A DNA stretch of 64,000 nucleotides from Spirochaetia bacterium (GCA_963662265.2 CAXXHA010000010.1:192001-256000), one strand, 5' to 3'; shown: positions 5,012-62,495, counted from the stretch's first letter. The notes: generated by a model from the sequence alone, not told the origin. Numbers and translations are program-made.

Positions 5012-5045
5012 ATTCAGTTATCCTGTTCTGAAAACAAGCATAGTC

Positions 5046-13445: not shown

Positions 13446-13448
13446 TGT

Positions 13449-22418: not shown

Positions 22419-23120
22419 ATGAAAAACAGAATAATCGGATTTGATGCAGATGATACATTATGGGTAAATGAACCATATTACAGAGAAACAGAAAAAGAAT
22501 TTGCAGATCTTCTTTCAGGTTTCTATCCAGAAGAGACCGTAAACAGGGAACTTCTGAAAACAGAAATTGCCAATATACCACTCTACGGTTTCGGGGCAAA
22601 AGGATTTACCCTGTCTCTCATTGAGACAGCCCTCAGGCTGAGCAGCAACAGAATAGAACAGGAAAAAATCGGGAAAATCATAGACTTATGCAAGGCCCTC
22701 ATCAACCGCCCCCTGATTCTTCTGGAGGGAGTTGAAGAGACGCTTGAAAAACTTTTCACGAGCGGTTACGGAATGGTTGTTGCCACAAAAGGAGACCTCC
22801 TTGACCAGCAGAGAAAACTCAAAAATTCCGGACTTGAAAAATATTTCGATCATATTGAGATAATGAGTGACAAGAAAGAGAGAGACTATCTGAATCTCAC
22901 AGAAAGACTCGGCATAAGAACTGAAAATTTTGTAATGATTGGAAACTCGCTGAAATCAGACATTCTGCCTGTTATCAGGATCGGGGCATCTGCTGTTCAT
23001 ATTCCGTTTCATACAACATGGGAACATGAAAAAGCAGAAGTTTCAGAAGAAGAAAAGAATAAATATATTGAAGCAGATCATATTAACGATGTAATCAGGA
23101 TTCTGGAAAATAAATATTGA
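22419..23120 (+). CDS. HAD family hydrolase
   Basis: FDADDTLW, TKGDLLDQ, MIGNSLKSDI. Confidence 0.93.
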   Translation: MKNRIIGFDADDTLWVNEPYYRETEKEFADLLSGFYPEETVNRELLKTEIANIPLYGFGAKGFTLSLIETALRLSSNRIEQEKIGKIIDLCKALINRPLILLEGVEETLEKLFTSGYGMVVATKGDLLDQQRKLKNSGLEKYFDHIEIMSDKKERDYLNLTERLGIRTENFVMIGNSLKSDILPVIRIGASAVHIPFHTTWEHEKAEVSEEEKNKYIEADHINDVIRILENKY

Positions 23121-29349: not shown

Positions 29350-30276
29350 TTACCTTTCCCCCCTGATATAGGGCTCCCCGAGATGTGCGGGAGCATTCAT
29401 TTTCCTGTGCCCCTCCTTGCTTATGCCGTAGAGGAACAGCACGGCAAGAGTCGTGAGGTATGGGAGCATACCAAGGAAATTCGGAGAAATCCCTAGCGGC
29501 TGGAGAAGATACTGGAGTACAAATATTCCTCCGAAAATGTAGGCCCCTGCAAAAGCTTTCCTCGGATCCCACATGGCGAAAATTGTAAGAGCCACAACTA
29601 TCCAGCCCCTTCCTGCAATCATCCCCTCGATCCAGGACTTGCTGTATGCAATGGAAAGATGAGATCCCGCAAGCCCCGCAAAAGCACCTCCGGTCATGAC
29701 ACAAAGATACTGAACTACCGATGCATTCACCCCCTGTGTTTCCGCAGCCCTTGGGTTCTCACCGACAGTCCTCACTGCAATACCGCCCCTTGTCTTGAAG
29801 AGAAAAAACCATGCAGCAATCCCGAGAATAACTGATATATAAAAATAGGGATCATGATTAAAAAGAATATCACCTACAACAGGGATATCACCCAGTAAAG
29901 GTATTTTAACAGCTGCCATTTTCATCTTGAGAGGTTTACCGATATATGGTTTGCCCCACAGGCCGCTTATTCCAAGGCCGAGCATTGTGAGGGCAAGGCC
30001 GGAGACTACCTGGTTTGCCTTGAGAGTGATACTTACAAAACCGTGGACCAGCGAAATCAGCGCGCCCATCACAATGGATGCAAACATTCCAAGCCATGGG
30101 TTTCCGGTAGTAAAAGTTACTATAAACCCGGAAACAGCGCCAACAGCCATCATCCCCTCTATACCGAGGTTCATCACACCGCCTCTCTGTGTTATTACTT
30201 CGCCGACAGTCCCGAGAAGAAGAGGCGTACCTGCAATAAGAGTTCTTTTCAATATTGATATAATTATCTGTTCCAT
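29350..30276 (-). CDS. Nucleoside-type ABC transporter permease (NupC-like)
   Basis: GVMNLGIEG, GENPRAA, GRGWIVVAL, MLPYLTT. Confidence 0.93.
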   Translation of the reverse strand: MEQIIISILKRTLIAGTPLLLGTVGEVITQRGGVMNLGIEGMMAVGAVSGFIVTFTTGNPWLGMFASIVMGALISLVHGFVSITLKANQVVSGLALTMLGLGISGLWGKPYIGKPLKMKMAAVKIPLLGDIPVVGDILFNHDPYFYISVILGIAAWFFLFKTRGGIAVRTVGENPRAAETQGVNASVVQYLCVMTGGAFAGLAGSHLSIAYSKSWIEGMIAGRGWIVVALTIFAMWDPRKAFAGAYIFGGIFVLQYLLQPLGISPNFLGMLPYLTTLAVLFLYGISKEGHRKMNAPAHLGEPYIRGER

Positions 30277-31382
30277 TATTTACCTTTCCTGATAAGAGAA
30301 ATCCTGTTTCTCTGGAAATATTCCCCCATTATGAGGAAAACAAGAATTATTCCGTTAAATACATTTACAGTAGCAGCAGGAAGATTAAGAGATATCTGGA
30401 TAGCATCTCCCCCCACAAGGATCCCGGCAAAAAATATACCTGATATTATTACAAGTACAGGATTCAGCCGCGCAAGCCATGCAACTATAATAGCGGTAAA
30501 TCCGTATCCTGAACTGATTGATTCGGGATATGTGAGGTGATGATGTATACCTGCAACCTCGCCTACCCCGGCAACTCCTGCAAGCCCGCCGCTAATAACC
30601 ATCATGAGAACTGTGGTTCTGAAAAAATCTATACCTGCATAACGTGCAGCTTCCTGGTTTTCACCGATAACTCTCACCTCATAGCCGAACCTTGTCCTGA
30701 AAAGAAGGAAGAAAAGATAAACCACACAGATAAGTGCAACAGCAAGTGTGAAGACATGGATCCTTGATCCCGGCAGAATAGCAAGCATTGCCTGCTCGGG
30801 GAAATCATCTGTATAGGGATACCCGAACTGGGTCTTTCCCTTCCAGGGCCCTATTACCAGCATCTTTATAAATTCGGCAGCAACATAGTTCAGCATCAGA
30901 GTTGAAATAACCTCGTTTATTCCGAAACGGACCTTCAGAAGCGCAGGGATAATTCCCCAGAGAGCACCTCCTACAAAACCTCCCAGAAACATGAGAGGAA
31001 CAACTACAGCAGCGGGAAGAAAAGGCCCCCACCGGAGGGCAATCCATGTGGCAACTGCGGCGCCGGCAAGAAGCTGGCTCTCTGCCCCGATATTCCAGAA
31101 CTTTCCCCTGTAAACAACAGTCAGCCCGCCCCCAATAAGTATAAGGGGAATTGCCTTTGTAATTGTTTCCTTGAATCCGTACATGCTTCCGAATGAGCCG
31201 GAAAATATCCTGAATATTGCATAAAAAGGGTTAATCCCCTTGAGGAGGAAAATAAAACCAATTGCTGAAAGCCCGGCGAAGAGAGAAATAAGCGCTATGA
31301 GCGATGAAACCCAACCCTTTACTTCTCCCCTGGGAGCTACATCTATTTTATAGTTTGTCATTAAATCTGTCGCAATTTTCAT
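30276..31382 (-). CDS. Nucleoside-type ABC transporter permease (NupB-like)
   Basis: WNIGAESQ, NEVISTLMLNY, GYGFTAIIVAWL. Confidence 0.93.
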   Translation of the reverse strand: MKIATDLMTNYKIDVAPRGEVKGWVSSLIALISLFAGLSAIGFIFLLKGINPFYAIFRIFSGSFGSMYGFKETITKAIPLILIGGGLTVVYRGKFWNIGAESQLLAGAAVATWIALRWGPFLPAAVVVPLMFLGGFVGGALWGIIPALLKVRFGINEVISTLMLNYVAAEFIKMLVIGPWKGKTQFGYPYTDDFPEQAMLAILPGSRIHVFTLAVALICVVYLFFLLFRTRFGYEVRVIGENQEAARYAGIDFFRTTVLMMVISGGLAGVAGVGEVAGIHHHLTYPESISSGYGFTAIIVAWLARLNPVLVIISGIFFAGILVGGDAIQISLNLPAATVNVFNGIILVFLIMGEYFQRNRISLIRKGK

Positions 31383-32953
31383 CTGGCAGCCCCGTTAATA
31401 ATAGTATTTTCAGACTCTGTATCACTGTCATTATTCTCATCAAGTTTCAATGAGCCTGTCATCATCAGTCCTATATCCTTGATATTGGAATCTCCCGCAG
31501 AGAGGATGCCCATGAACTCACCCTTGAATATGACCGCTATCCTGTCGCAGATTTCAAAAAGCTCTTCAAGGTCTTCTGAAACAAGGAGAACTCCGCCCCC
31601 TTCCTCACGCCTGTTAAGTATCTGTTTTCTGATATATTCTGTTGCACCGATATCAAGACCATATGTCGGATGAGAAGCAACAAGAAGAGCAGGCTTGCTT
31701 TCTATCTCACGGCCGATAATAAGCTTCTGTATATTACCCCCTGAAAGGGATTTAACCGGCACATTTATGGAAGGCGCTGCAATATTGAATTTTTCTACAA
31801 TATTTGTTGTATGCTGTTTAATCAGGTCGTAATCGAGAAAGAGAAGCCTGGAAAAAGGGCTTGAATGGTGTTTTTTCAGAATTGCATTCTCATATATGAA
31901 GAGATTGGGAACAATCCCGAACTTGATCCTTTCCTCCGGGACATGTGTTATACCGCGTGTATTTACAACACGGGCAGACTGATTTGTAATTGAATCATCT
32001 TCAAGCATTATTTCCCCGGAATGAGCTTTTCTGAGCCCTGTAATTGATTCGACAAGCTCTCTCTGACCGTTACCCGATACACCGGCAATACCGAAAACCT
32101 CGTTTCTGTAAACAGAGAAGTTAAGAGAATTAACAGCCTTGTTTCCCCTGTCTCCCAGGACAACAAGATCTTTGACTTCAAGGACTTTTTCCCCCCTGGG
32201 CATAGGCTTCTTGTCAAAGGTAAGAAAGACATCACGGCCAACCATCATTCTGGCAAGAGCTTTCTTATCTATATCCTTTACAAAAGCCTCACCTACAGTT
32301 TCCCCTTTTCTGAGAACTGTTACCCTGTTGCAGATATTCATAATCTCATCAAGTTTATGGCTTATGAGAATAATTGAATGTCCCTCAAGGGTCATCCTCC
32401 GGATTATTTCAAACAGATCATCTGACTCCTGAGGAGTCAGAACACTTGTCGGTTCATCCATGATAAGAAGATCTGCTTCAAGAAAAAGCGCTTTCAGAAT
32501 CTCAACCTTCTGCTGCTCACCTGCCGAAAGCTGCCAGATTTTCTTATCAGGATCAACTTCCATTCCATACTGCCTGGAAATTCTGAATATCTTTTCCCTG
32601 ATATATTTTTTGGGAAAAAAGAAAGGAACATCCTTGAATCCGAGAGCAATATTCTCCGCTACTGTATGATTCTGAACAAGCATGAAATGCTGATGAATCA
32701 TTCCTATCCCGGAACCCATACTGTCTTTCGGGGATTTGATTCTGACAGATTCGCCATTTATACAAATTTCCCCCTCATCCGGCTTGTACAGGCCGTAGAG
32801 GATATTCATGAGCGTTGTTTTACCGGCCCCGTTCTCGCCAAGAAGACCAAGGACCTCCCCTGATTTGATCTTCAGGTTGATATTTTTATTTGCATAAAAT
32901 CCGTGGAAGGATTTGGAAATACCCTTCATTTCAAGGGTTTCTATTCTATGCAC
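31379..32953 (-). CDS. Nucleoside-type ABC transporter ATP-binding protein (NupA-like)
   Basis: GENGAGKTTL, DEPT, LSGGNIQK; GTG start at 32953 after AGGAG. Confidence 0.93.
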   Translation of the reverse strand: MHRIETLEMKGISKSFHGFYANKNINLKIKSGEVLGLLGENGAGKTTLMNILYGLYKPDEGEICINGESVRIKSPKDSMGSGIGMIHQHFMLVQNHTVAENIALGFKDVPFFFPKKYIREKIFRISRQYGMEVDPDKKIWQLSAGEQQKVEILKALFLEADLLIMDEPTSVLTPQESDDLFEIIRRMTLEGHSIILISHKLDEIMNICNRVTVLRKGETVGEAFVKDIDKKALARMMVGRDVFLTFDKKPMPRGEKVLEVKDLVVLGDRGNKAVNSLNFSVYRNEVFGIAGVSGNGQRELVESITGLRKAHSGEIMLEDDSITNQSARVVNTRGITHVPEERIKFGIVPNLFIYENAILKKHHSSPFSRLLFLDYDLIKQHTTNIVEKFNIAAPSINVPVKSLSGGNIQKLIIGREIESKPALLVASHPTYGLDIGATEYIRKQILNRREEGGGVLLVSEDLEELFEICDRIAVIFKGEFMGILSAGDSNIKDIGLMMTGSLKLDENNDSDTESENTIINGAAR

Positions 32954-33350
32954 AAGATTTTCTCCTGATTTTTGTTGTTGAAGGCAATATAACCCGGACA
33001 GCACTGAAACCAGAACACAATGCTGAAAACTGCTGATTATTATCCAGCATGGCCGGGGTACCCCCCTCACAGTTCTCCCGGCTTTATGGTTTCAGGAAGT
33101 ATAAGTAAAATAAATCACTTACAGATAAAGAGATATACATATCCGGGAATATTATCAAATAATATTCAAATATTTGATATTCTGCAATAATAAGAAATAT
33201 TATTTAGGAATAAATGAAGTATCAGAAACTGTTATTTAGCAGAAAACTGACGTCACGACATGGAAAATACAGAATAGTTTATTTTAGACTTTTAAAATTT
33301 GATTTCAGAACAGGCTTTTATAAATTGAATCAATAACCCCTCTAGCTGTA

Positions 33351-33492: not shown

Positions 33493-34407
33493 TTATTTTG
33501 ACTGTTTAAAATCTTTTCCCCAGTCAAAAATATCTTCTATCAAACTGCTTACAGTTTTTTTCATTATCTTCTGGGAATTGTATGCCAGGTAAAACTTTCT
33601 CTTCAGTTCCGGGTCATTTATTCTTACTGCATGAATTTCGCCCCGTTCAATTTCATTTTTAATAACATTTTCCGCGATGAATCCAAATCCCATCCCGTTT
33701 TTGACAAAATTCTTCAACATTTCGCTGTTTGAAAAATCGCCTCTGACATTTACTGTTATCTTGTTTCTTGTGAGGAATTTCTTTACAGAGTCTATTGTTC
33801 CGCAGCTTTTTTCCATGAAGAAAACATTTTCAAGCCCGTCTATCTCTTCAGGGTCCACAAAATCTCTATCTGAAAATTTACTTTCCTTCGGACAGATAAG
33901 AACAATTCTGTCTTCAAGTATCTCTGTTACTGTCAAACAGGAGTCCTTGATTTTTTTGGAAATAATTCCGAAATCACACTTGAGATCTATAAGGTTCATT
34001 ATGACCTGGCTATCCGGCAGAATATCAAGCGACACATAATTATCTGGATTGCTGGACAGGAAATCGGGATAAATATAGGAAAAATAATGTATTGCAAAAG
34101 TTTCAGTTGAATATATTTTTATCCGGCTCTGATTCTGCTTTATTAAATCATTGATTTCAGCAGCAACCTTTATTTCATTTTCAAAAAAATCTTTTGCAAT
34201 TTCAAAAATCCGGGATCCCTCATTAGTCAACTCTACATGCTTCTTGCTTTTATTTATCAAAGACAGCTGAAGTTCGTTCTGCAGCTCCTGAACCTGTCTG
34301 GTCACTGTAGGCTGCGATGTTTCGAGATATTTTGCAGCATTACTGAAACTTTTAAACTTTGCAGTATAATAAAACGTTTTTAGCAAATTTATATTCATAC
34401 AACGCAA
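33493..34407 (-). CDS. LysR family transcriptional regulator
   Basis: SFSNAAKYLETSQPTVTRQVQELQ HTH, GMGFGFI. Confidence 0.93.
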   Translation of the reverse strand: MRCMNINLLKTFYYTAKFKSFSNAAKYLETSQPTVTRQVQELQNELQLSLINKSKKHVELTNEGSRIFEIAKDFFENEIKVAAEINDLIKQNQSRIKIYSTETFAIHYFSYIYPDFLSSNPDNYVSLDILPDSQVIMNLIDLKCDFGIISKKIKDSCLTVTEILEDRIVLICPKESKFSDRDFVDPEEIDGLENVFFMEKSCGTIDSVKKFLTRNKITVNVRGDFSNSEMLKNFVKNGMGFGFIAENVIKNEIERGEIHAVRINDPELKRKFYLAYNSQKIMKKTVSSLIEDIFDWGKDFKQSK

Positions 34408-34511
34408 CCTTATTTTATATTATTAAACAGATATCTGACTTCTAAGTCAGTTTTCATAACAAGCACAAGTATATATTATTATTTAAAACAATACTCTGAA
34501 TAAAAACAATT

Positions 34512-35996
34512 TTAACTTCCTATGATTCTATCAACAGCTTTTTCCCATCTTTCAAACTTCCGGATATTATCCATGTATTTCTCATGCCTGATAATTTCCT
34601 TTTGTTTTTCAATCTTTTGTATTTCATCAAGATCAGACCAGATTCCAAGGCCTAATCCGGCAAGATAACAACCGCCGAGAGCTGTTATTTCATTCTCCCT
34701 GGGCTTGATTATTTCAATTCCCAGAAGTTTTGAAAGATAATCAATTAAAAAAGCATTATTTGTAACACCGCCGTCTATTGAAAGAGATCTGATTGACTGG
34801 ATTCCATTTTTCTCAATCAGGTTCACTATCTGGTAAATACGAAATGCTATTGATTCAAGCACAGATTTTACCAGTTGATTCCTGCTTGTATCAAGCCCCA
34901 TGCCTGTAAATGCAGCATTGCTTTCAGTAGTCCAGTATGGAACAGATAATCCAGCAAGAGCCGGAATAAAAAAGACTTCACTGTCGCCATCCTTAACCAT
35001 CTCTTCCAGTTCGCTGTTTGATTCAAAGACACCGATTTTATTCTTAAGCCAGTCAATTGCAGATCCGACTGTATATATCCCGCCGTCGATTATATAACCT
35101 TTTTCATCTTTCAACTGGGGACAAACTGTTGTAATCAGCTTATCCTTTTTAAAAGGTATTTCATAACCTACATTAACAAGTAAAAATCCGCCTGTACCCA
35201 ATGTAAGTTTAGCCTCGCCCTTATTGAAACACCTGTGCCCGAACAATGCAGACTGCTGATCCACTACTGAAGAGATAATAGGCGCTTCTATTCCGGAGCA
35301 TATTTCAGGATCAGTTATTCCATAGTCAAAAATAGTTGATGCTGTCTCCGGTAGCAGATTCATATTTAAGCCGAAGAAATCAACAATTTTTTCATCCCAT
35401 TTATATTTATCAATATCAAACAGAAGTGTCCTGGAAGCTGTAGTCACATCTGTGCAGTAGTTTTTCTTTTTAATCAGTTTATTTATAAGCCATACTTCAG
35501 AAGTAGCAATAATAAGATTGTTTTTTTTATTTTCTGCTTCAATTTCAGAAATATTATCCAGAAGCCATTTCATTTTAGGAGCTGAAAAATAAGAATCCAT
35601 GAAAAGCCCTGTTGTTTTTTCTATATAATTTTCAATCGCAGGGTTTTTATAGATATTCAAATCCTCTGAAGTTCTGTTATCCTGCCAGACAATAGCATTA
35701 TAGAGGGGTTCGAGAGTTGTCTTGTTAAACGGAATAATTGTCTCGCCCTGATTATCTATCGCTACAGCAGCTATTTCTTTAGGCGAAACATCATAATTAT
35801 TTAAGACATCTTTAATTCCGTCTGTAATACTTAAAAATATATCCTGAGGATTATGTTCAACCCAGTTTCTTTTCGGAGTAATTGTTTTAAACGGTTTTAT
35901 AATTTTTACTATTTCGTTGGTTTTGAAATCATAGAGGACTACTTTAGTAGATGTTGTTCCCTGATCAATAGATAAAATATATTCATTCATATACAC
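34512..35996 (-). CDS. FGGY family kinase, GlpK-like with divergent substrate pocket
   Basis: IDQGTTSTK, WVEHNP, VWQD, ASRT, DQQSALFG, GTGGF, DGG; DNQGE in place of TNQRE. Confidence 0.9.
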   Translation of the reverse strand: MYMNEYILSIDQGTTSTKVVLYDFKTNEIVKIIKPFKTITPKRNWVEHNPQDIFLSITDGIKDVLNNYDVSPKEIAAVAIDNQGETIIPFNKTTLEPLYNAIVWQDNRTSEDLNIYKNPAIENYIEKTTGLFMDSYFSAPKMKWLLDNISEIEAENKKNNLIIATSEVWLINKLIKKKNYCTDVTTASRTLLFDIDKYKWDEKIVDFFGLNMNLLPETASTIFDYGITDPEICSGIEAPIISSVVDQQSALFGHRCFNKGEAKLTLGTGGFLLVNVGYEIPFKKDKLITTVCPQLKDEKGYIIDGGIYTVGSAIDWLKNKIGVFESNSELEEMVKDGDSEVFFIPALAGLSVPYWTTESNAAFTGMGLDTSRNQLVKSVLESIAFRIYQIVNLIEKNGIQSIRSLSIDGGVTNNAFLIDYLSKLLGIEIIKPRENEITALGGCYLAGLGLGIWSDLDEIQKIEKQKEIIRHEKYMDNIRKFERWEKAVDRIIGS

Positions 35997-36172
35997 CTCT
36001 ACAAAAATTATTAGAAATTATCAGATATTTAGAGACTCTTTCGCATGAACTTGTTTATTCTGTAAATCTGACTAAGTGCCCTGTAACAGAAACTTCCACA
36101 GATGAAACTGCAGAAGTTTCCAAACCAGATAAAAAAGTTCTCAATAAAGTTATTCAAACTTTGAATAATTTT

Positions 36173-37492
36173 CTATTTTGCAAAATACAGGTCAGGCAGC
36201 CATGTAGCAATTTCCGGGAAAATAATCAGAATTGCTATTGTTGCAACCATAAGCAGGATGAAAGGAACAATGGAACGGTATATATCACCAAGAGTTATTT
36301 CCTTAGGAGCCATTGCCTTCATGAGAAACAGGTTATATCCGAACGGAGGTGTCAGGTAAGCTATCTGACATGTTATTGTATAGAGAACCCCGTACCATAT
36401 CGGGTTAAAACCCATTTTAACTACCAGCGGTATATAAAGCGGAGCTACAATAATAAGCATAGCTGTATCATCCAGGAAAGTTCCAAGCAGCAGGAATGAA
36501 ACCTGCATGGCAATAATAGTCCCTATAGGACCGAAACCATGGCTCAGGAATAATGATGCAATAGCATGTACAGCTCCGAGACCGTCAAAAATTCCTGCAA
36601 AAGCCATAGCAGACATTGCAACCCACATGAACATAACACTTACACTTACTGTCTGTGTCAGAACTTTGTTCAGGATTTCCCAGTTAAATCTTTTCTTGAT
36701 AATTGCTGCAATTACAGTTGCAATTGCACCGATCGCAGAACTCTCAACAAGACTTGTTACACCAAGAAGGAAAAGACCGGACATCATTAAAATAATAAAT
36801 AATGGAAGAAGACCGCCCTGCAGAGCTTTAATCTTTTCTTTCATCGGGAGGTCCCATTCTTCTCTCGGCAGTACAGGTCCCAGGTCAGGCTGAAGGTGAC
36901 ATCTTACAATGATATATGCAATGAACATTCCAGACATGAGAAGACCAGGAAAAACACCTGCGAGCCAGAGATGACCTACCGGCTGTCTTGCAATCATTCC
37001 GTAAAGCACAAGAACTACACTTGGCGGTATCAGAATACCAAGGGAACTTCCGGCCTGGATTACACCTGTTACCATCTTTTTGTCATACTTCCTTTTAAGC
37101 ATTTCCGGCAGAGCTACACTGCTGCCAACGCTCATCCCGGCAACACTTAAACCGTTAATTGCGGATATAACAGCCATCAGACAAATAGTCCCGATTGCCA
37201 GTCCCCCTTTCAGAGGCCCGGTTAGAATATGTATCAGTTTATACAAATCTTCTGATATTTTTGATTCAGAAAACAAATATCCGATAAATACAAAAATCGG
37301 CAGAGTAACCAGAGGATACCAGTTAATAAGTTTGAAAGCAGAATGAAACCCCATTTCCATTCCGCCGGCACCCCAGAGGGCTATAGCGAAAATACTTGCA
37401 ACTCCCCCTATAACAGCATATATATGACGTCCCGATAAGAGAGTAACAAACATGGTAAGAAACATTAATAGTGCAATATACTCATAACTCAT
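36173..37492 (-). CDS. dctM: TRAP transporter large permease
   Basis: GSSLGILIPPS, YLTPPFGYNLF; start MSYEY after GGAGG. Confidence 0.95.
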   Translation of the reverse strand: MSYEYIALLMFLTMFVTLLSGRHIYAVIGGVASIFAIALWGAGGMEMGFHSAFKLINWYPLVTLPIFVFIGYLFSESKISEDLYKLIHILTGPLKGGLAIGTICLMAVISAINGLSVAGMSVGSSVALPEMLKRKYDKKMVTGVIQAGSSLGILIPPSVVLVLYGMIARQPVGHLWLAGVFPGLLMSGMFIAYIIVRCHLQPDLGPVLPREEWDLPMKEKIKALQGGLLPLFIILMMSGLFLLGVTSLVESSAIGAIATVIAAIIKKRFNWEILNKVLTQTVSVSVMFMWVAMSAMAFAGIFDGLGAVHAIASLFLSHGFGPIGTIIAMQVSFLLLGTFLDDTAMLIIVAPLYIPLVVKMGFNPIWYGVLYTITCQIAYLTPPFGYNLFLMKAMAPKEITLGDIYRSIVPFILLMVATIAILIIFPEIATWLPDLYFAK

Positions 37493-38036
37493 CGTCAAAC
37501 CTCCAGTCTTTAATCCAGGATGTATCTTTGCCGAATGCAAGTACTATATCTTTAATAATTTCAGAAATATTCTGTAACAGCATAAGAGCTACACCTGCAG
37601 TAGCAATAATTTTCATCGGGGCTATAGGCGGAGCCCATGCTGAATAATTAGTCTGATTATATTTCAACGCATAAGCTGAACTTGAAAAACCGCCAATTAA
37701 AAGCCAAATTAAAAATGCAAGGCTTAATGCAAAAGTAAGAATATCAAAGACAGTTTTTTTCCTCTGAGACCATTCATGATAAAAATAGTCCATACGAACA
37801 TGCCCGCCTATCAGATATACATAAGCTCCGCCCAGCAGATAATAGGTTCCATTAATAAACTGAGTAATTTCCAGTGACCATTTATTGGAAATATCAAAAA
37901 AATTCCTACACATGGCTTCATATGCCAAAACTGCAATCATTAATAAAACCAGAAATTTAACCACATTGCCGAGTGCTGCGCTTATGGAATCTATAGACTT
38001 TACATAAATTTTAATCGGCTTCATTATAAAATCCAT
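37482..38036 (-). CDS. dctQ: TRAP transporter small permease
   Basis: LGGAY, GHVRMD, WAPPIAP, LMLLQ. Confidence 0.92.
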   Translation of the reverse strand: MDFIMKPIKIYVKSIDSISAALGNVVKFLVLLMIAVLAYEAMCRNFFDISNKWSLEITQFINGTYYLLGGAYVYLIGGHVRMDYFYHEWSQRKKTVFDILTFALSLAFLIWLLIGGFSSSAYALKYNQTNYSAWAPPIAPMKIIATAGVALMLLQNISEIIKDIVLAFGKDTSWIKDWRFDDEL

Positions 38037-38061
38037 TTCTCTTTTCCTTCTAAAAAATTAT

Positions 38062-38137
38062 GCTGTATTCCCTTCGAAATGAGCAGAGAATACAGCCTGA
38101 AGATATTTTAATCTGATTTTCATCAGATTAAAATATC
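38062..38137. other. Two hairpins between dctP and dctQ
   Basis: gctgtattc...gaatacagc, and a perfect 16-bp stem gatattttaatctgat-tttc-atcagattaaaatatc. Confidence 0.7.
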
Positions 38138-38149
38138 AAAGTTTCATTC

Positions 38150-39244
38150 TTATTTTCCGCCTGTGTAAGGAGCGCCTGCTTTCTGTCTGATCTCTGCATA
38201 CTCTTTAAATGCTTTGATAATTCTTTCAGATCTTGGGCTTTTCTTGGAAAATTCATCCCAGTATTTAGCAGCCTGCGCTTCTACGCCTGTCCACTGGTCT
38301 TCTGGAATTGAAGTAAGTTCCATTTTAGCACCTTCAGCTCTGTACTTAGCTTCTCCCCACCAGTACCAGTGAAGTCTGTAATAGTTGGATGCCTGAATTG
38401 TCATTTTTAATAGTCTCTGGAGGTGATCAGGAAGAGCTTCCCATGACTTTGTGTTAACAAAGAAACCGCCTGACCATGCACCTGAAATAGGGTTTGTTAA
38501 AAGGTAATCACATACATCAGCAATACCTGTTGTATAAAGTTCAGTAGCGCCTGACCATGTTACACCATCAAGCATTCCTGTCTGAAGAGCCATCTGTACA
38601 TCTTCTACAGGCATAACTACAGGAACAATACCGTATTCTGCCTCAAGGAATTTACCGTTGAAAAGAGAAGTAAAAAGTCTCATACCTTTAAGATCTTCTA
38701 CACTTCTTACAGGTTTTGTACTTGCTACAAGACAAGGGTCCCAGCTTCCCTGAGAAAGCCATGTAACACCTTCGATTTCATCATAAGCTTCTTTCCAGAT
38801 TTCATTAAGGCCGTATCTGTTCCATAAAACATCAATATCAAGACCGATTCTTCCTGCTGCAGGAAAATAAGCTGAGAATGTTGCAACATCTGCAGGTGAA
38901 CCCATTGATTCATCATCACTGAGAGCCATATCTACAGTACCGCTCTGAACAGCATTAAAAAGTTCTCCATGAGGTACAAGCTGGTCAGCCCCGAAAATTT
39001 CGATTACCATTTCACCGTTTGCAATCTCATTGAATTCCTTGATCATGTTGCCGATGATTTCATCATTCATTGAAGGCCCTGCATATGTCTGAAGCCTCCA
39101 TCTGATTGTTTCTTTCTTTGCATTTCCGCCTGCATCTCCAGAGCCGGCATTATTACCGCAGCCGGTAAAAATCAAAGAAGCCATTACTACCATTGCAGTA
39201 AGTCCGATAACAAAGAAAAATCTTCCAACGTTCTTCTTTTTCAC
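38150..39244 (-). CDS. dctP: TRAP substrate-binding lipoprotein, ethanolamine/amino-alcohol-binding type
   Basis: FTGC lipobox; RLQTYAG, ADQLVPxGELF, SDDxSMxSP, WDPC, WSGxTE, ISGAW, WYWWGEA. Confidence 0.9.
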   Translation of the reverse strand: MKKKNVGRFFFVIGLTAMVVMASLIFTGCGNNAGSGDAGGNAKKETIRWRLQTYAGPSMNDEIIGNMIKEFNEIANGEMVIEIFGADQLVPHGELFNAVQSGTVDMALSDDESMGSPADVATFSAYFPAAGRIGLDIDVLWNRYGLNEIWKEAYDEIEGVTWLSQGSWDPCLVASTKPVRSVEDLKGMRLFTSLFNGKFLEAEYGIVPVVMPVEDVQMALQTGMLDGVTWSGATELYTTGIADVCDYLLTNPISGAWSGGFFVNTKSWEALPDHLQRLLKMTIQASNYYRLHWYWWGEAKYRAEGAKMELTSIPEDQWTGVEAQAAKYWDEFSKKSPRSERIIKAFKEYAEIRQKAGAPYTGGK

Positions 39245-39362
39245 AAAATCCCCCTAAACCAAACTTAAAACTAAAATATTCACAGGCAAAATGCCTGTTG
39301 TTAGAAAATAGAAACTACCGGGCAAATACGACAATTTCTAATTACTACCGAAATAAGTATTC

Positions 39363-40472
39363 TTAATTCCCTGACATATCCTTAAAAACACTTTCCAGAA
39401 CTTTTACAAAAGCCCTGCAGTCATCAGGAAAAATCAGACCCATATTTGCTATCTGAAACATGTTTTTCTCGAGAAAAGGCCCTTTTCCCAGATATAACAC
39501 ATATCCTTCCTCTTCCATTCTATCAATAAAATCATGTACAGGAATCGAATCCGGAAGAAAAACAGATGTTACTGTATTTGATGAAACTTTATCATCAAGA
39601 AGAACTTTAAGCCCCATATCTGCAACATACTTTCTGATTATTCCGGCATTTTCTCTGTATCTTGCAATACGTCTGTCCATCCCCTCTTCCAGCAGTTCCC
39701 TGACTGACTCAAGAAATGTATTAAACATAACAACTGACGGCGTATTAAGTGTCTGGTTGATTGATTCAGCAAGCTCTATATGCTTCTGAAGCCTCAGATA
39801 TGTATTTCTTACAGGTGTATTCGCAATTTCGCTGATTCTCTCTCTTTTTGTAATAACAAAAGAAGCACCCGGCTGTCCTCCGACCGCTTTATTGGGAACT
39901 CCTGTACAGAAATCAACACTCCAGTCATCAAGATAAATAGCTTCTCCCCCTACCGCACTTACTGCATCCAGATGGAAAAGAACATTATATTTTTTTGTAA
40001 GCTCAGAAACTTCCTTAACCGGGTTAATCATACCGGAACTTGTTTCATGCATAACCATCAGCAGATGTGTAATTGAAGAATCATTTTTAAGAGCATCTTC
40101 AATTTTGCTGATATCAGGATATCCCCCCCAGTCAAAATCCAGTACTGTGTTGGAAATACCGTAGCAATCAACAAATTTTGCAAGCCTGCTTCCAAATTCA
40201 CCATTGCTGATAACAAGAGCCTTTGAATCTTCCGAAAAAACAGAAGAGATGACACATTCATTGGCAGCACTTCCAGAACCTGTAAGTACAACCGAAGAAT
40301 AGTTTTCTTCAGAAGCATTAACAATTTTAAGAATACCCTGTCTTAATTCAGAATATATTTTTTCAAAATCTCCCCTTCGATGACACAAATCAGGGATTAA
40401 CGCCGCATTTTTTACTTTATCAGTAGTTAATACCGGCCCCGGGGCAAATAAGTATTTTTTTTGCATTATCAC
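39363..40472 (-). CDS. Class V PLP-dependent enzyme, PhnW-like
   Basis: APGP, GSGSAANE, NGEFG, HETSSGMINP, DAVSAVGG, PNK (PLP Lys), YLGK. Confidence 0.9.
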   Translation of the reverse strand: MIMQKKYLFAPGPVLTTDKVKNAALIPDLCHRRGDFEKIYSELRQGILKIVNASEENYSSVVLTGSGSAANECVISSVFSEDSKALVISNGEFGSRLAKFVDCYGISNTVLDFDWGGYPDISKIEDALKNDSSITHLLMVMHETSSGMINPVKEVSELTKKYNVLFHLDAVSAVGGEAIYLDDWSVDFCTGVPNKAVGGQPGASFVITKRERISEIANTPVRNTYLRLQKHIELAESINQTLNTPSVVMFNTFLESVRELLEEGMDRRIARYRENAGIIRKYVADMGLKVLLDDKVSSNTVTSVFLPDSIPVHDFIDRMEEEGYVLYLGKGPFLEKNMFQIANMGLIFPDDCRAFVKVLESVFKDMSGN

Positions 40473-40533: not shown

Positions 40534-40620
40534 TATTTATTTATGTATAATAATAAATATACTAAAGGGATTTTGTCAAGATATATTCATTTTTAGATAT
40601 CGTTATTTATTTATGTATAA
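40534..40620 (-). promoter_or_regulatory. Promoter TTGACA-N18-TATTAT flanked by two exact 17-bp direct repeats
   Basis: -35 at 40579-40574; repeats tatttatttatgtataa at 40534 and 40604. Confidence 0.55.
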
Positions 40621-40732: not shown

Positions 40733-40808
40733 TGCCTGTTACTTTCACAGGCATAAAAAAAGCGCTGATCAGATGACCAGCGCTTTTGTATATCCCCGTA
40801 CACCGGGG
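40733..40808 (-). terminator. Three tandem hairpins including the bmp terminator
   Basis: tgcctgt/acaggca; aaaagcgctg/cagcgctttt with a minus-strand T-tract; ccccg/cgggg. Confidence 0.75.
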
Positions 40809-40827: not shown

Positions 40828-42027
40828 CTAGTTGGTTTTAGGAAGCTTTGATGCAACATTATCCACATAATACATTATAGAAAGAAGGTGGTCCTTATCA
40901 CCTCTCTCCCCTTCAGCAATCTGCAGGTTACCTTCATTGTCATAAACCGGGCCGTCATAAGGATCAAACTCGGGATTTTCCTGCTGCATCTGCTCGAGTC
41001 TTTTCTTGACAAGATCAAGAATGGATATTTCACCGAAATCCTTGCTGTTTGTCATGATACCTGCAAGGTCATCAATAAATTTGCTGTTGATCTGTTCTTC
41101 GAAATTTCCTCCAAGAGCTACAGCTTTTTTATTTACAAGCCACCAGAGATCTTCACTCTTCCAGTTTCCTTCGTAGAGATCTTTAAAGATTTTTTCATAC
41201 ATTACACCCCAGTTTGCAAGGTGACCGGAAACAACACTGTCTTCGCCGTACTGCTGCATAGGGCTGTAATGGCTGAATGTATAAATCTGGTTTCCTTTTT
41301 CTGTATGCTCCTGGCCTACTTCAATTACAGCAGGTGTATCTTCTGTAAAAGCAAGTGTATCACAGCCTTCTGCAATAAGAGCTTCAGCAGCTTCTCTGGC
41401 CTTGTCAGGTCCGTACCAGGAATAGATCCATTTTACATAAACTTTGGCTTCCGGATTGACTTCCTTGATACCACGGGAAAAAGCATTTATATGTCTGTAA
41501 AGTTCAGGAATAGGGAAAGCAGCAACATATCCGATTTTATTGCTTTTAGAAAGGGAACCAGCCATGAGTCCATTCAGGTAATACATCTGGTAGAGGTCTC
41601 CATAATATGTACCAACATTTTCAGACTGCTTGAAACCGGAACAGTGCATGAATTTTGTATCGGGATATTTTTCTCCTGCAGCAATAGTATCATCCATATA
41701 ACCGAAACTTGTTGTAAAAACAATATCGCATTTTTCTTCCTGTACAAATCTGTCTATAATTCTTGAACTGTCAGATTCAGCAACACTTTCAACATATACT
41801 GTATCAAGCCATGGAAATTTTGATTCTGCATACTCTTTGCCGACATGGTGGGCATATGACCATCCATAGTCCCCTACAGGGCCTACATAAACAAATCCGG
41901 CCTTTATTCTTTTTTCCTCAGCAGCTGCAGCGCTTTTTTCCTCTTTTTTACAGCCTGTCACAGCTAAAACACTTAATGCAATTATCATTATTAAAACTAT
42001 TTTAGATAATGCTTTCCCCATTTTCAT
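40828..42027 (-). CDS. BMP family ABC substrate-binding lipoprotein (nucleoside type)
   Basis: VTGC lipobox, YVGPVGDYGW, TSFGYMD, INAF, SWYGP. Confidence 0.95.
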   Translation of the reverse strand: MKMGKALSKIVLIMIIALSVLAVTGCKKEEKSAAAAEEKRIKAGFVYVGPVGDYGWSYAHHVGKEYAESKFPWLDTVYVESVAESDSSRIIDRFVQEEKCDIVFTTSFGYMDDTIAAGEKYPDTKFMHCSGFKQSENVGTYYGDLYQMYYLNGLMAGSLSKSNKIGYVAAFPIPELYRHINAFSRGIKEVNPEAKVYVKWIYSWYGPDKAREAAEALIAEGCDTLAFTEDTPAVIEVGQEHTEKGNQIYTFSHYSPMQQYGEDSVVSGHLANWGVMYEKIFKDLYEGNWKSEDLWWLVNKKAVALGGNFEEQINSKFIDDLAGIMTNSKDFGEISILDLVKKRLEQMQQENPEFDPYDGPVYDNEGNLQIAEGERGDKDHLLSIMYYVDNVASKLPKTN

Positions 42028-42207: not shown

Positions 42208-44151
42208 TCAGTCTGCCGATGATACAGTAATTCCCCCGAATATCTTTTCCGCTTCCCAGTCATATCCTGCATAAGCTGAAAAGATAACCGAGGTCAATCC
42301 TATAAATGAGACATCAAAATCAAGGGACATCCCTGTAGATATACCGTCATCATCTCTCTGAAAATAATCACAGAAAGCTGATGCCTCAATATCTTTTACA
42401 ATAAGAATTTCCCCGAGAGAGATATCTGAATCTGCAAAGAAAGAGAAGTTGTTGTTTGTAACAATTATTCTGTCAAACCTGCCGTCTACCGAATATCCCC
42501 TGAGCCCGTCATTTCTGTAAAGCTCAAGAGTATCACTGCTATCCAGAGGCATCCTGACAGTTGTTTTCTGCCTTATCCCGAAATGATCAGTAAACCTGAT
42601 CTTGAAATTATCCCTGAATCCCATACCGGCAACAGATGTTTCACTGCCGATTTTCCCGTCCCCTTCATTGAACCAGAATCCGGAAAGGTAATAATCACCT
42701 CTTGCAAAATAGAGATCAAGCCCGGATCTGAGCATTGATTTTTCTATCTCATAGGACGGATCAAATTCCGACTCAAATACAGCAAAGGGAAGGATAGAAG
42801 TTTCCAGGGATGATGAAAGATTGAAATCTCCTCTCCCGTAATAATAGGAATATTCATAATCAAAATCTTCCCAGTTAAACAGCATCCTGTTCTTGAAACG
42901 GAGGAAATCAAAAAGGACAAAATTAAGCCTGTTGTCAAATCCGGCATTTTCTCCTCCCCAGTATTCACTCACCGATGCTTCAAGATACCTGTATTCAAGT
43001 TTCTGCCTTAGATTGAGATAATTTATATCGTTAAGAAAATAATCATCTGCTGTTCCGCTGTACATCTGGAACCCTCCGGAGAAAGAGAAGGAAGGATCTT
43101 TCTGCGGAATGAATGATGTTTTTATATATTTTTTTCTGCTTATTTCATAACGCTTTTCAACAGACTTTCTTTCCTCAGAGAGAATCTTTATCATATTCAC
43201 ATTTCTGTTTTCAGATAAATTTATGGTTAAATCAGGCGGAAGCTCTGAAAGGGCGTGTTCAGCAGATTCATAGCCTATTTTTGAAAGTTCATCCATTTTC
43301 TGAAAAGCCATGAATGAATAATTCTCTACATTACATCTTATAAGAACCGGTTTGAGTGTCTTCAGCTGATAAACACCTTTCCGGGTTTTTCCAATGTCAA
43401 AAGCCCTGTTGATTACAGAAGTAAAGCTGTTGAAGCTGCTTTCAAGATTATAGAGTGCAGTTGAGACAATAATCCTGTCTGTATACTTTGCCGCGCCGTC
43501 AACAGGGACTAAATTCGTCACTCCCCCGTCAATAAGCTTCATACCGTTATACTCAACAGGAGGGAAACTGAAAGGCATTGAAATACTGCCCTGAAGGACT
43601 TTATAAAAATCTCCTTCCATAAAAACTATCTGTCTTCTGGAAACAAGATCCTCTGAAATAATAGCAACAGGTATTTTTAGATCTTTTATATCAATATCGC
43701 CCAGAACTTCGTAAAGAACAGAAATGAACCGGCCGGAATCCAGAACTCCCCCGTCTACTGGCATTTTCAACTGGAAAAGCTCCTTTGTATCATAATCAAG
43801 CATCATCTGCTGAATCATGTCGGGAGAAAATCCCGCAGCATAGAGAAGAGCCACAACTGATCCCATGGAATTTGCAACAATAAAATCAGGGTATATGTTT
43901 TCAGCTTCAAGTTTTTTAAGAACACCTATATGTGCAAAAGCTCTTGCCGCTCCGCCTGAGAAAACAAGACCGAGAGGTTTTTCACCTGTTTCATGGCAGT
44001 TTATCCTCTTCCTGAAATTTTCCTCGCCATAATATACAGGCTGATCAGTAAGATAAAGATCCCCGTTCAGCGTCGTATAATCAAAAGCTTCAGAAAAAGC
44101 AAGACTGCATAAAATAAAGAAGATAAGTATAATAAATGTGTTTTTTTTCAT
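42208..44151 (-). CDS. Patatin-like phospholipase with probable C-terminal beta-barrel
   Basis: Signal peptide; SGGAARAFAHIG; ANSMG; DGG; aromatic alternating strands in the C-terminal half. Confidence 0.8.
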   Translation of the reverse strand: MKKNTFIILIFFILCSLAFSEAFDYTTLNGDLYLTDQPVYYGEENFRKRINCHETGEKPLGLVFSGGAARAFAHIGVLKKLEAENIYPDFIVANSMGSVVALLYAAGFSPDMIQQMMLDYDTKELFQLKMPVDGGVLDSGRFISVLYEVLGDIDIKDLKIPVAIISEDLVSRRQIVFMEGDFYKVLQGSISMPFSFPPVEYNGMKLIDGGVTNLVPVDGAAKYTDRIIVSTALYNLESSFNSFTSVINRAFDIGKTRKGVYQLKTLKPVLIRCNVENYSFMAFQKMDELSKIGYESAEHALSELPPDLTINLSENRNVNMIKILSEERKSVEKRYEISRKKYIKTSFIPQKDPSFSFSGGFQMYSGTADDYFLNDINYLNLRQKLEYRYLEASVSEYWGGENAGFDNRLNFVLFDFLRFKNRMLFNWEDFDYEYSYYYGRGDFNLSSSLETSILPFAVFESEFDPSYEIEKSMLRSGLDLYFARGDYYLSGFWFNEGDGKIGSETSVAGMGFRDNFKIRFTDHFGIRQKTTVRMPLDSSDTLELYRNDGLRGYSVDGRFDRIIVTNNNFSFFADSDISLGEILIVKDIEASAFCDYFQRDDDGISTGMSLDFDVSFIGLTSVIFSAYAGYDWEAEKIFGGITVSSAD

Positions 44152-44157
44152 AAAAAG

Positions 44158-45363
44158 CTAAATCAGAGAAGATCCTTCAGAAGAAACATTTATATTAAAA
44201 ATCTTAAGTACAGTAGCCGCAATATCTGCAAAGGACTCTCTTATTCCCCCGTTATTCTTTTCAATGCTGTCCCCGCTTATTTGATCAGTAACACCCTTTC
44301 TGTAAAAAAGGATAGGTACATATTCTCTTGTGTGATCAGTTCCTTTAAAAGAGGGATCACAGCCGTGGTCAGCAGTGATGATAAGGACATCTTTTTCAGA
44401 AAGAAGAGATACAACTTCATCTATTCTACTGTCTATTTCTGCAACAGCATCATGATAACCCTGAATATCTCTCCGGTGTCCGTATTTCATATCTGTATCA
44501 ACTAGATTAACAAAAATCAACCTGTCAGAAGCCTCTTTATGCTTTAAAAGGTCAACTGTTCTGTCCATGCAGAGGAGATTTCCCTTATCATGGTAACTTT
44601 CATCAATTCCCTGTTCATTGAAAATATCGCCTATTTTGCCGACAGCAACTGTTTTAACACTGTTCTCTGACAGATGATCAAGCATTGTTTTTCCGGGAAG
44701 AGGAATACTGAAGTCCCGCCTTCTCTCAGTCCTTGTAAAACCGCCAGAGCTGTTTCCAATAAACGGACGGGCAATAACACGCCCTACCATGAAGTCATCA
44801 CATATTACCCTGCTTTTCTCACAGATCTCATAGAGCTTATCAACAGGAATAACATCTTCATGGGCAGCTATCTGCAAAACAGAATCGGAAGAAGTATAAA
44901 TTATCGGATACCCTGTTTTTATATGCTCGTCTCCGAGCTCCTGTATAATCTGCGTACCGGAGGCTGCCCTGTTTCCAAGATACCCCGGGCATACATCTTT
45001 TACAAAACGATCGAGAAGCTCCTCAGGGAAGGAGGGATAATCAGGGGGAAAAGTTCTGAATGCCTTATCAAGGACAGTTCCCGCAATTTCCCAGTGCCCG
45101 GTTGTTGTGTCTTTTCCGGGCGACTTTTCAGCAGCAGCAGCATATAAAGATACTGGATTATTATCAGGTCCGCACCCGGGAAGAGAATTTCCAAGGAGCA
45201 TTGAAACATTGCCGAGTCCCATTTTTTTAAGAGCAGGCCACTTAACCTCTTTTACATTTTCACATATATGAAGGGCAGTATTTGATCCCCTGTCCCCGTA
45301 TTTATCAGCATCAGGCAATTCCCCAATACCGAAACTGTCTATAACAAGAATTACTGCATCCAT
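44158..45363 (-). CDS. deoB: Phosphopentomutase
   Basis: DSFGIG, GKDTTTGHWE, YGHRRD, TADHGCDP, TDHTRE. Confidence 0.97.
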   Translation of the reverse strand: MDAVILVIDSFGIGELPDADKYGDRGSNTALHICENVKEVKWPALKKMGLGNVSMLLGNSLPGCGPDNNPVSLYAAAAEKSPGKDTTTGHWEIAGTVLDKAFRTFPPDYPSFPEELLDRFVKDVCPGYLGNRAASGTQIIQELGDEHIKTGYPIIYTSSDSVLQIAAHEDVIPVDKLYEICEKSRVICDDFMVGRVIARPFIGNSSGGFTRTERRRDFSIPLPGKTMLDHLSENSVKTVAVGKIGDIFNEQGIDESYHDKGNLLCMDRTVDLLKHKEASDRLIFVNLVDTDMKYGHRRDIQGYHDAVAEIDSRIDEVVSLLSEKDVLIITADHGCDPSFKGTDHTREYVPILFYRKGVTDQISGDSIEKNNGGIRESFADIAATVLKIFNINVSSEGSSLI

Positions 45364-45513
45364 ATTCCGCCGCCTTATCCATAGTATTTTAAATAAATTA
45401 TTATGCCTTTCTTACCAATTAAGTTTAATACAATTAATTTAATAAATTTCAGATGACAGGTAAATGAGAATTTCTTTTCAGTTGAACTGATTTTTTCTTA
45501 AGATATAGAATAT

Positions 45514-54518: not shown

Positions 54519-54552
54519 TTACTCGCCCCTTAAAAATTATTTTAATACAAAT

Positions 54553-57701: not shown

Positions 57702-57801
57702 AGTTCAACCCCGTAATTTCCGGAGGATTACCCCTCCTGAAGTAATTAATCAAATCCCCTGTTATGCAGCCTTATTGATTTGTCAGCAGAAAAATTTCCT
57801 G

Positions 57802-62351: not shown

Positions 62352-62495
62352 ACCTTATTTCCCAGCTCATAGCTTTTCAATAGATACTGGAGCCTTAATA
62401 TCCTGAAGTCATTATCAGGATCAGTAAAATCATCAGCCCTGTTTCTGATATAACAGTAAATGCCTATCAGATATTTAAAATGCCTTTCAAGGCCC

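Follow-up and report, generated by a model that had tools for sequence, protein, structure and literature searches.

Ethanolamine and related head-group amines are major sources of carbon and nitrogen in guts and sediments, and the bacterial routes for ethanolamine in the literature cited here are the B12-dependent eut system and gamma-glutamylation. A route free of both B12 and microcompartments, known from Erwinia, from the mycobacterial aminopropanol route and from animal ETNPPL, phosphorylates the hydroxyl group of ethanolamine or 1-aminopropan-2-ol at the expense of ATP, after which a pyridoxal 5'-phosphate (PLP) enzyme removes the nitrogen; its kinases have a protein-kinase-like fold and its lyases are class III aminotransferase relatives. 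Here we analyze a 64,000-nucleotide stretch of DNA from a Spirochaetia bacterium (GCA_963662265.2 CAXXHA010000010.1:192001-256000; hereafter the window), in which a six-gene cluster at positions 33493 to 40472 may follow a similar logic with an FGGY kinase and a class V PLP enzyme instead, joined to a transporter of the tripartite ATP-independent periplasmic (TRAP) kind. We give about even chances to the reading that this cluster serves, as an inducible operon, to break down a small cationic amino alcohol, which would be imported, phosphorylated and then deaminated as its phosphate ester.

PhnW of the Salmonella-type PhnW/PhnX pathway is likewise a class V PLP enzyme for a 2-aminoethyl compound with a phosphorus oxyanion, and some relatives of the locus share with that pathway similar regulators and PhnS/PotD-like ATP-binding cassette (ABC) transporters; the cluster differs in having no PhnX, an attached kinase, ethanolamine-type TRAP uptake, and a PLP enzyme marked by a His-Arg pair and Gln340. 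Serinol phosphate is made by Cj1437, a dihydroxyacetone phosphate (DHAP) aminotransferase of another aminotransferase class. RtxA's N-terminal domain converts DHAP to serinol phosphate by aminotransfer (PMC3222319). Both are biosynthetic, running in the reverse of the direction that the PLP step would take here if the substrate were serinol phosphate. As for uptake, published reports describe 4UAB as Csal_0678 with ethanolamine, held by a platform residue, Glu220, and surrounded by aromatic side chains (PMC12410723); they describe Csal_0678 as lacking the carboxylate-binding Arg of TRAP proteins (PMC4646407), and a Phaeobacter homologue, EtoX, as binding ethanolamine with a dissociation constant of 7.9 uM and encoded beside gamma-glutamylase, dehydrogenase and amidohydrolase genes (PMC10132767).

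The original prediction held the amino-alcohol system to be undescribed, and this agrees with the literature searched (subscription journals being mostly uncovered), where we found no description of a kinase-transaminase route for amino alcohols or of its enzyme names; exact names such as "serinol kinase" and "phosphoethanolamine transaminase" had no match there. What appears to be new is the branches of three protein families and their wide, unrecognized distribution, the chemistry being known in outline.

Six genes behind one predicted promoter

The open reading frame (ORF) listing places six ORFs, all on the minus strand, at exactly the limits first proposed (33493 to 40472), and Pfam bears out the predicted set of a co-oriented PhnW-like enzyme, dctPQM, a GlpK-like kinase and a LysR gene. 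In order of transcription (PLP enzyme, dctP, dctQ, dctM, kinase, LysR gene), they are as follows:

39363..40472, minus strand: class V PLP enzyme (PhnW-related), 369 amino acids (aa); Pfam Aminotran_5 (PF00266), 72.2 bits
38150..39244, minus strand: DctP, TRAP solute-binding lipoprotein, 364 aa; Pfam DctP, 90.2 bits
37482..38036, minus strand: DctQ, TRAP small membrane subunit, 184 aa; Pfam DctQ, 71.2 bits
36173..37540, minus strand: DctM, TRAP large membrane subunit, 455 aa; Pfam DctM, 225.7 bits, and TIGR00786, 254.5 bits
34512..35996, minus strand: FGGY kinase of the glycerol-kinase branch, 494 aa; FGGY_N, 196.8 bits, and FGGY_C, 91.1 bits
33493..34407, minus strand: LysR regulator, last gene of the cluster, 304 aa; HTH_1, 53.6 bits, and LysR_substrate, 104.6 bits

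Two of the listed starts call for correction. The PLP-enzyme gene likely begins at the ATG at 40466, which is preceded by GGAG and agrees with a 100%-identical database protein of 367 aa; for dctM, whose listed TTG start overlaps dctQ, the translation makes an ATG 16 codons downstream (about 37492) the more likely start.

The six genes are predicted to be one transcription unit behind one conserved promoter. Since a terminator-like hairpin closes the upstream gene for a BMP-family binding protein, the cluster should have a transcription start of its own, and the region's best sigma-70-like match (11 of 12 positions) lies between two exact 17-nucleotide (nt) direct repeats. The elements of the control region are these:

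40758..40787, minus strand: terminator-like hairpin with a T run; inverted repeat with 14-nt arms, 93% complementary
40534..40620, minus strand: promoter region; -35 TTGACA and -10 TATTAT (40579-40550) with an 18-nt spacer
39282..39340, minus strand: two terminator-like hairpins (39340-39309 and 39298-39282) that separate the PLP-enzyme gene from dctP

The two repeats (40604-40620 and 40534-40550) are 100% identical at a spacing of 70. Both of these boxes and the promoter hexamers are conserved in the two closest records, the Spirochaetia genomes L002 and L005, and the rest of the intergenic spacer is not; these genomes have an identical gene order and proteins 84 to 97% identical to those of the cluster. 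The last gene encodes a regulator of the LysR class, in which Pfam recognizes HTH_1 at the N terminus as well as a LysR substrate-binding domain and for which no curated cut-off was reached in an NCBIfam scan; orthologues occupy the equivalent position in loci L002, L005, L029 and L032. The protein is probably the activator of the operon, and we infer that the 17-nt repeats are candidate operator sites through which it would switch the operon on. The hairpins at 39282-39340 could form an attenuator or a transcript-stabilizing element. An Rfam scan of the whole window gave no match.

Several genes of alternative routes had been predicted to be absent, which holds for the 61 window ORFs (15 + 46), each 80 aa or longer, that were searched with Pfam. 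This set contains no EutB/EutC, glutamine-synthetase-like protein, MIP/GlpF channel, FAD-type GlpD or aldehyde dehydrogenase, and no phnX, phnA or phnY; gamma-glutamylation genes are absent from it and from eight related loci that have the same type of TRAP system. The sole haloacid dehalogenase (HAD) hydrolase of the window is encoded at 22419-23120, 16 kb away on the opposite strand.

An ethanolamine-type binding protein of a distinct subtype

Judged by sequence, none of DctP, the kinase and the PLP enzyme is an ordinary member of its family. The original prediction of pocket changes in all three stands for the kinase and the PLP enzyme, whose changes fall at known contact positions, while for DctP it extends only to probable pocket columns.

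The proposed likeness of DctP to Csal_0678 was confirmed: its best match in the Protein Data Bank is 4uab/4xf5 (E 1.5e-106, 359.8 bits), with the runner-up reaching only 2.1e-18. In the translation a signal peptide is followed by Cys. Phe191 occupies the column of the canonical TRAP Arg (Arg-147 of the literature) in alignment A2, where the comparators were two ordinary DctP proteins that both carry this Arg, and the platform Glu is kept, Glu235 aligning with the Glu of the Csal_0678 motif. The close match, the lost carboxylate Arg and the acidic platform residue together place DctP in the EtoX/Csal_0678 type; the genetic setting is different, a kinase and a PLP enzyme standing here where gamma-glutamylation genes stand in Chromohalobacter and Phaeobacter (EtoXVW/Csal_0678). 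Uptake of taurine, other sulfonates or carboxylates was considered and rejected, as the binding protein is without the anion-binding Arg.

The family is large (2063 matches at E <=1e-40), and we compared 18 window-type sequences, namely those of eight loci linked to the PLP enzyme plus ten database hits at least 66% identical (the window's own entry included), with 110 other members. The two groups have 99 nearly invariant columns in common and 22 that are type specific, among them Ala129 (Leu/Phe in the others), the run Thr192-Ser193-Leu194-Phe195-Asn196 (Met-Phe-Pro-Thr-Gly in the others), an inserted extra Glu201, Val213 (Tyr/Trp in the others) and Leu236 (Asp in the others). Csal_0678 sides with the majority at columns 129, 193-195, 213 and 236. 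Columns 129, 193 and 213 hold aromatic or large residues in Csal_0678 and in most of the 110, and Ala, Ser and Val in the window type; their placement in the pocket is predicted only. The run 192-196 starts directly after the canonical-Arg column, and column 213 is, we assume, that of the ligand-stacking Phe of the sialic-acid TRAP protein. The type-specific columns are thus probably pocket positions at which bulky residues have been swapped for small polar ones, and DctP is, by these comparisons, a distinct subtype of the ethanolamine-binding EtoX/Csal_0678 type. From what is known of the family, the transporter would import the free amino alcohol.

The window also holds a second, ordinary TRAP system (DctP, DctQ and DctM, 11665-14465), the binding protein of which keeps the canonical Arg.

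A glycerol-kinase branch that has lost Arg83

The kinase matches E. coli GlpK structures at about 1e-102, and falls under the curated cut-offs for glycerol kinase (NF000756 GlpK, 473.6 versus 498; TIGR01311, 464.1 versus 590.35). The specificity signature of GlpK comprises Arg83, Glu84, Tyr135, Asp245 and Phe270 (PMC3245297), and the same contacts are given in PMC2680290. With numbering by E. coli GlpK from the K-12 record, the window kinase has Gly in place of Arg83 and keeps the other four signature residues, as well as Trp103 and Gln246. Gly83 recurs in 25 of 26 full-length kinases of related loci, the exception (L041) being another FGGY type, and all but one (L017) of these 25 keep Glu84, Trp103, Tyr135, Asp245, Gln246 and Phe270. 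Among the best 150 cluster representatives drawn from 1.84 billion proteins, 22 have Gly83 and 110 the canonical signature. In a FastTree phylogeny all 48 Gly83 sequences form one clade without any Arg83 member (support 0.79), further marked by three clade-specific changes, N185T, G244V and F307Y; position 307 falls in a segment near the glycerol site (PMC2680290). The window kinase thus departs from GlpK in Gly83, Thr185, Val244 and Tyr307, in its sub-threshold scores and in having no glpF or glpD in the window.

The pocket has therefore lost its sole cationic contact, with Glu84 and Asp245 remaining as the charged members of the signature. Such a loss in an otherwise retained site would be expected if one hydroxyl of a glycerol-like substrate had become an ammonium group, and the protein is proposed to act as an amino-alcohol kinase, phosphorylating the hydroxyl group of the imported compound.

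In two metagenome-assembled loci the kinase gene seems shortened or interrupted, with 397 aa and an internal gap in L009 (4678-5871) and a partial match only in L027 (about 4378-5124), which could reflect decay or assembly error.

A class V PLP enzyme with a His-Arg pair and Gln340

The best structural relatives of the PLP enzyme are PhnW proteins (1m32, E 7.5e-49), and its cofactor-site residues, Lys195 and Asp169, do not vary and line up with their counterparts in PhnW and SerC, in keeping with the class V fold. It has at least 120 clusters of relatives, mostly 46 to 87% identical to it, which their sources name 2-aminoethylphosphonate (AEP) transaminase, alanine-glyoxylate aminotransferase family or class V enzyme; in the ESM Atlas the matches were only clusters automatically named AEP transaminase. 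Compared with two PhnW proteins encoded beside phnX on Salmonella and Vibrio plasmids, the family differs at these positions:

Positions 31-32: His-Arg in the family, Thr-Trp in PhnW
Position 71: Asn in the family, Val in PhnW
Position 225: Tyr in the family, Ser/Thr in PhnW
Positions 240-241: Gln-Thr in the family, Lys-Trp in PhnW
Position 340: Gln in the family, Arg in PhnW

His31, Arg32 and Gln340 occur in every one of the 49 locus proteins with sequence at these columns, a count that excludes ten relatives less than 40% identical and three truncated proteins, and in all 32 rows of alignment A1. Position 340 is Arg in eight of those ten distant relatives and His in the other two, and the other class V transaminases compared likewise have Arg where the family has Gln340. 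Arg340 of Salmonella PhnW is, we take it, the phosphonate-binding residue.

These differences bear on the simplest alternative, that the cluster serves ordinary AEP catabolism by PhnW and that an unrelated, ordinary glycerol kinase happens to lie beside it. In its favor, PhnW is the closest match by family as well as by structure, the relatives carry the name AEP transaminase in their sources and in automatic annotation, and some related loci resemble phn clusters in having GntR regulators and PhnS- or PotD-like ABC transporters. All three PhnW models, however, stay under their cut-offs (TIGR03301 PhnW-AepZ, 285.6 versus 360.8; NF010006, 229.7 versus 296; TIGR02326, 217.7 versus 400.8), the replacement of Arg340 is without exception in the 49 proteins, the binding protein belongs to the ethanolamine type and the kinase to a separate Gly83 clade that follows the PLP gene across phyla, and phnX, phnA and phnY are lacking both in the window and among the annotated neighbor families of related loci. 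We consider this explanation highly improbable.

In place of PhnW, SerC offers a model for the new residues. It shares the fold class, and both hhalign and MAFFT align His31-Arg32 with His41/Arg42 of E. coli SerC, which hold the phosphoserine phosphate jointly with Arg328 and His327 (PMC12011608). PMC6797613 places the SerC pair in a side-chain recognition site shared with the Tyr-Arg pair of plant AGT1. SerC is a distant relative, and, unlike it, the PLP enzyme lacks an Arg at the carboxylate site, as would suit a substrate devoid of a carboxylate (decarboxylated or reduced phosphoserine). As a reasoned lead, the substrate may resemble phosphoserine minus its carboxylate, i.e., O-phosphoethanolamine or serinol phosphate; the enzyme would bind this aminoalkyl phosphate through the His-Arg pair and then remove its amino group.

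Enzymes with the same signature also occur in a different setting. On plasmids (L085, 5001-7816; L084, 4272-6859), class V enzymes with the His-Arg/Gln signature adjoin LicC-like cytidylyltransferases. The Sulfitobacter relative (33% identical) has a CDP-alcohol phosphatidyltransferase gene alongside as well, and the Bacillus thuringiensis relative (36% identical) carries a 240-aa N-terminal extension and lies beside cytidylyltransferase and nonribosomal peptide synthetase (NRPS) genes; no phosphonate genes are annotated near either. In these settings the enzyme type seems to serve biosynthesis, a use so far undescribed. Cupriavidus and Burkholderia plasmids gave hits as well, in records that carry no annotation. 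In L033 and L034 (Omnitrophota and Nomurabacteria; 35 to 36% identical) the His-Arg pair is kept, position 340 is His, and the surroundings comprise a PurF-like amidotransferase, a cupin, a 412-aa protein and a uridine-kinase-family protein. Among 7980 candidates, no long fused relative of the RtxA kind was found at E 1e-10, which is weak evidence.

The plasmid neighbors raise the question of whether the window cluster is itself biosynthetic, providing an aminoalkyl phosphate (e.g., serinol phosphate from DHAP) for a cell-envelope product, as the cytidylyltransferase, phosphatidyltransferase and NRPS genes beside the plasmid relatives might suggest. The window gene, however, stands in a unit with a binding-protein-dependent TRAP transporter, a kinase and a LysR regulator, Pfam and NCBIfam find no nucleotidyl- or phosphatidyltransferase with the cluster among the window ORFs, and the related loci carry uptake systems and hydrolases. 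A biosynthetic role is accordingly very unlikely.

Recurrence of the kinase and the PLP enzyme in related loci

The check by neighborhood co-occurrence that accompanied the original prediction was run, and the pairing recurs. A single genome scan with the PLP enzyme as query gave 79 loci, 69 of them with a relative at least 40% identical; kinase and PLP enzyme were counted from tblastn hits, as some high-GC loci had antisense ORF calls (families F4 and F9). In the stretch examined, 30 of the 69 loci contain a gene, or part of one, for a Gly83-type kinase, within 500 bp in 14 and on the same strand in 25; where 5 kb or more is available on each side (33 loci), 15 have the kinase. By record title the carriers belong to Spirochaetota, Atribacterota, Desulfobacterales, Chloroflexota and Bacillota, the last from gut or rumen, and include the cultured Hornefia butyriciproducens. 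The kinase-linked loci are scattered across all subclades of the PLP-enzyme tree, and in the loci examined, all of them collected through the PLP-enzyme scan, the Gly83 kinase is always found with the PLP enzyme. Chance adjacency of the two genes is ruled out by the 30 loci and by the Gly83 type of the full-length kinases.

The transporter varies: the window-type TRAP system occurs in eight loci, where DctQ copies are 57 to 97% identical, and others have PotD- or PhnS-like ABC, oligopeptide-type ABC or ordinary TRAP transporters or an amino acid-polyamine-organocation (APC) permease. Regulators adjoining the PLP gene are of the DeoR (15 loci), GntR (6 loci) and LysR (4 loci) types. DeoR regulators often sense phosphorylated intermediates. 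Further neighbors are a metallophosphoesterase (8 loci), a divergent transaldolase near the PLP-enzyme gene (7 of 69), a dimethylglycine-oxidase-like protein with a folate-binding domain (7 loci), MttB-family methyltransferases, opine-dehydrogenase-like proteins and M81 peptidases (3 loci each), and one amidase and one M20 amidohydrolase. The best solved relatives of the L014 metallophosphoesterase, at full length and E 2e-38, are 2dxl/2zo9/3d03 (a 274-aa "phosphohydrolase"), presumably the glycerophosphodiesterase GpdQ. One locus, L028, has both a kinase and a transaldolase-like gene. No phnX, phnA or phnY was seen among the annotated neighbor families; the annotation covers families in at least three loci plus 48 further picks, so that rare neighbors may be missed.

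In L035-L039 and L025, which are of Anaerolineales type, an 837-aa fused FAD-oxidase/aminomethyltransferase and a 401-aa divergent transaldolase precede the PLP gene (5838-9924 in L036) and a PhnS-like ABC transporter follows it, with no kinase. An N-methylated aminoalkyl phosphate is a possible starting compound for this gene set.

Surroundings of the cluster

The cluster sits between the gene for a BMP/PnrA-type ABC binding protein (40828-42027) and those for its ATPase and two permeases (29350-33070), all on the same strand, an arrangement also found in L002 and L005; deoB and a pyrimidine-nucleoside phosphorylase gene lie nearby at 44158-46821. The G+C content of the cluster is 0.34 to 0.39, compared with 0.44 for 28 to 32 kb, and this low value suggests insertion into a nucleoside-uptake operon. 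A patatin-like phospholipase gene (42208-44151, 647 aa), present also in L002 and L005, lies 1.7 kb upstream on the same strand, and could supply the pathway by freeing lipid head groups. The glycogen genes on the minus strand at 53253-63953 (glucose-1-phosphate adenylyltransferase, glycogen synthase, two amylase-family proteins and glycogen phosphorylase) look ordinary.

Order of the steps and fate of the product

The import-phosphorylate-deaminate scheme that was originally proposed for an amino alcohol is upheld as regards the gene unit, and its order agrees with the way in which the PLP enzyme's His-Arg pair aligns to the SerC phosphate site. We think it likely that phosphorylation precedes deamination. 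A phosphorylated intermediate would also fit the DeoR regulators, as well as those loci that have a phosphodiesterase or a PhnS-like importer instead of the kinase.

Several observations weigh against the scheme as a whole. No kinase is seen in the stretch examined in 39 of the 69 loci, nor in 18 of the 33 that have 5 kb or more on each side, from which it follows that the PLP enzyme can act without a neighboring kinase. Six of the seven transaldolase loci are likewise without a kinase in the stretch examined, which fits a free hydroxy-carbonyl product too. Window-type DctP departs from the proven ethanolamine binders at its 22 type-specific columns, the probability that hhalign assigns to the SerC match is low (26.7%), and 2-phosphoglycolaldehyde, the expected product from ethanolamine, is to our knowledge not a standard metabolite. 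Lastly, PMC6797613 credits the Tyr-Arg pair of plant AGT1, at the equivalent site, with the use of serine as amino donor, so that the His-Arg pair is no proof of a phosphate-bearing substrate.

The AGT1 precedent and the transaldolase loci without a kinase are also in line with a reversed order, in which the free amino alcohol is transaminated and the GlpK-like enzyme then phosphorylates the hydroxy-carbonyl product (dihydroxyacetone from serinol, glyceraldehyde from 3-amino-1,2-propanediol or glycolaldehyde from ethanolamine). E. coli glycerol kinase accepts dihydroxyacetone and glyceraldehyde, and a transaldolase/fructose-6-phosphate-aldolase-like gene without a kinase would suit direct use of dihydroxyacetone or glycolaldehyde. 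The loss of Arg83 is, however, hard to explain for a neutral kinase substrate, the invariant His-Arg pair and the lost carboxylate Arg suggest an anionic group at the side-chain site, and L028 carries both a kinase and a transaldolase-like gene; this order is therefore quite unlikely.

If the phosphate ester is indeed the substrate of the PLP enzyme, its amino group could leave in two ways, between which we lean only slightly to transamination over elimination of phosphate. Transamination would yield a phosphorylated carbonyl compound that feeds sugar-phosphate metabolism, namely 2-phosphoglycolaldehyde from ethanolamine or DHAP from serinol. The elimination alternative keeps uptake and kinase as they are and makes the PLP enzyme a phospho-lyase that converts O-phosphoethanolamine, or another phosphorylated amino alcohol, to acetaldehyde, ammonia and phosphate. 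Such a reaction is known (EC 4.2.3.2), normally by class III enzymes, and three considerations speak for it: (i) a kinase followed by an O-phosphate phospho-lyase is the classical B12-independent route of Erwinia, mycobacteria and animals; (ii) a beta-phosphate is, in general PLP chemistry, a good leaving group once the alpha-proton has been removed; and (iii) the product would need no special downstream enzyme, which suits a minimal cluster. On the other hand, the enzyme descends from transaminases and retains their conserved residues, SerC is generally known to handle a beta-phosphate in the same fold class without elimination, no aldehyde or alcohol dehydrogenase is among the annotated neighbor families, the divergent transaldolase recurs in 7 of 69 loci, and fermenters would pay one ATP for little gain. 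As a reading of the cluster in its own right, the phospho-lyase is unlikely.

Which amino alcohol

For the scheme of import, phosphorylation and deamination, pocket evidence favors a glycerol-sized amino-diol such as serinol, and the feeder enzymes of related loci favor ethanolamine. We place ethanolamine a little short of even probability, on several lines of reasoning: (i) the ancestry of the binding protein; (ii) the presence of enzymes that would release ethanolamine or its phosphate (GpdQ-like diesterase, amidase and N-demethylating enzymes) and, in the window, of the patatin-like lipase gene upstream; (iii) the abundance of ethanolamine in the habitats concerned; and (iv) the transaldolase-like gene, which would be sensible if the product were the unusual 2-phosphoglycolaldehyde. 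Serinol or another three-carbon amino-diol is put forward more tentatively: the kinase retains its three-carbon pocket in full, the binding protein appears to offer added room lined by polar residues, Gln340 could hold a hydroxymethyl group, a two-enzyme cluster would end directly in DHAP, and the plasmid relatives beside cytidylyltransferase genes suggest an aminoalkyl phosphate made from a central metabolite. That the substrate is something else is somewhat less probable again.

Implications

A more far-reaching proposal, which we advance with considerable doubt, is that the cluster represents a widespread B12-free and microcompartment-free route by which anaerobes turn lipid-head-group amino alcohols, as phosphate esters, directly into a sugar-phosphate precursor; the divergent transaldolase could then join 2-phosphoglycolaldehyde to a three-carbon unit to give a pentulose phosphate. 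If this is true, both enzyme activities and the pentulose-phosphate pathway would be new to biochemistry.

To conclude, the current names AEP transaminase and glycerol kinase falsely suggest the use of phosphonates and glycerol, and Gly83 of the kinase together with His31-Arg32 and Gln340 of the PLP enzyme can serve as markers for re-annotation. If the proposed function is true, a third route for ethanolamine and similar head-group amines, one that needs few genes, would alter the interpretation of the genomes that carry it.

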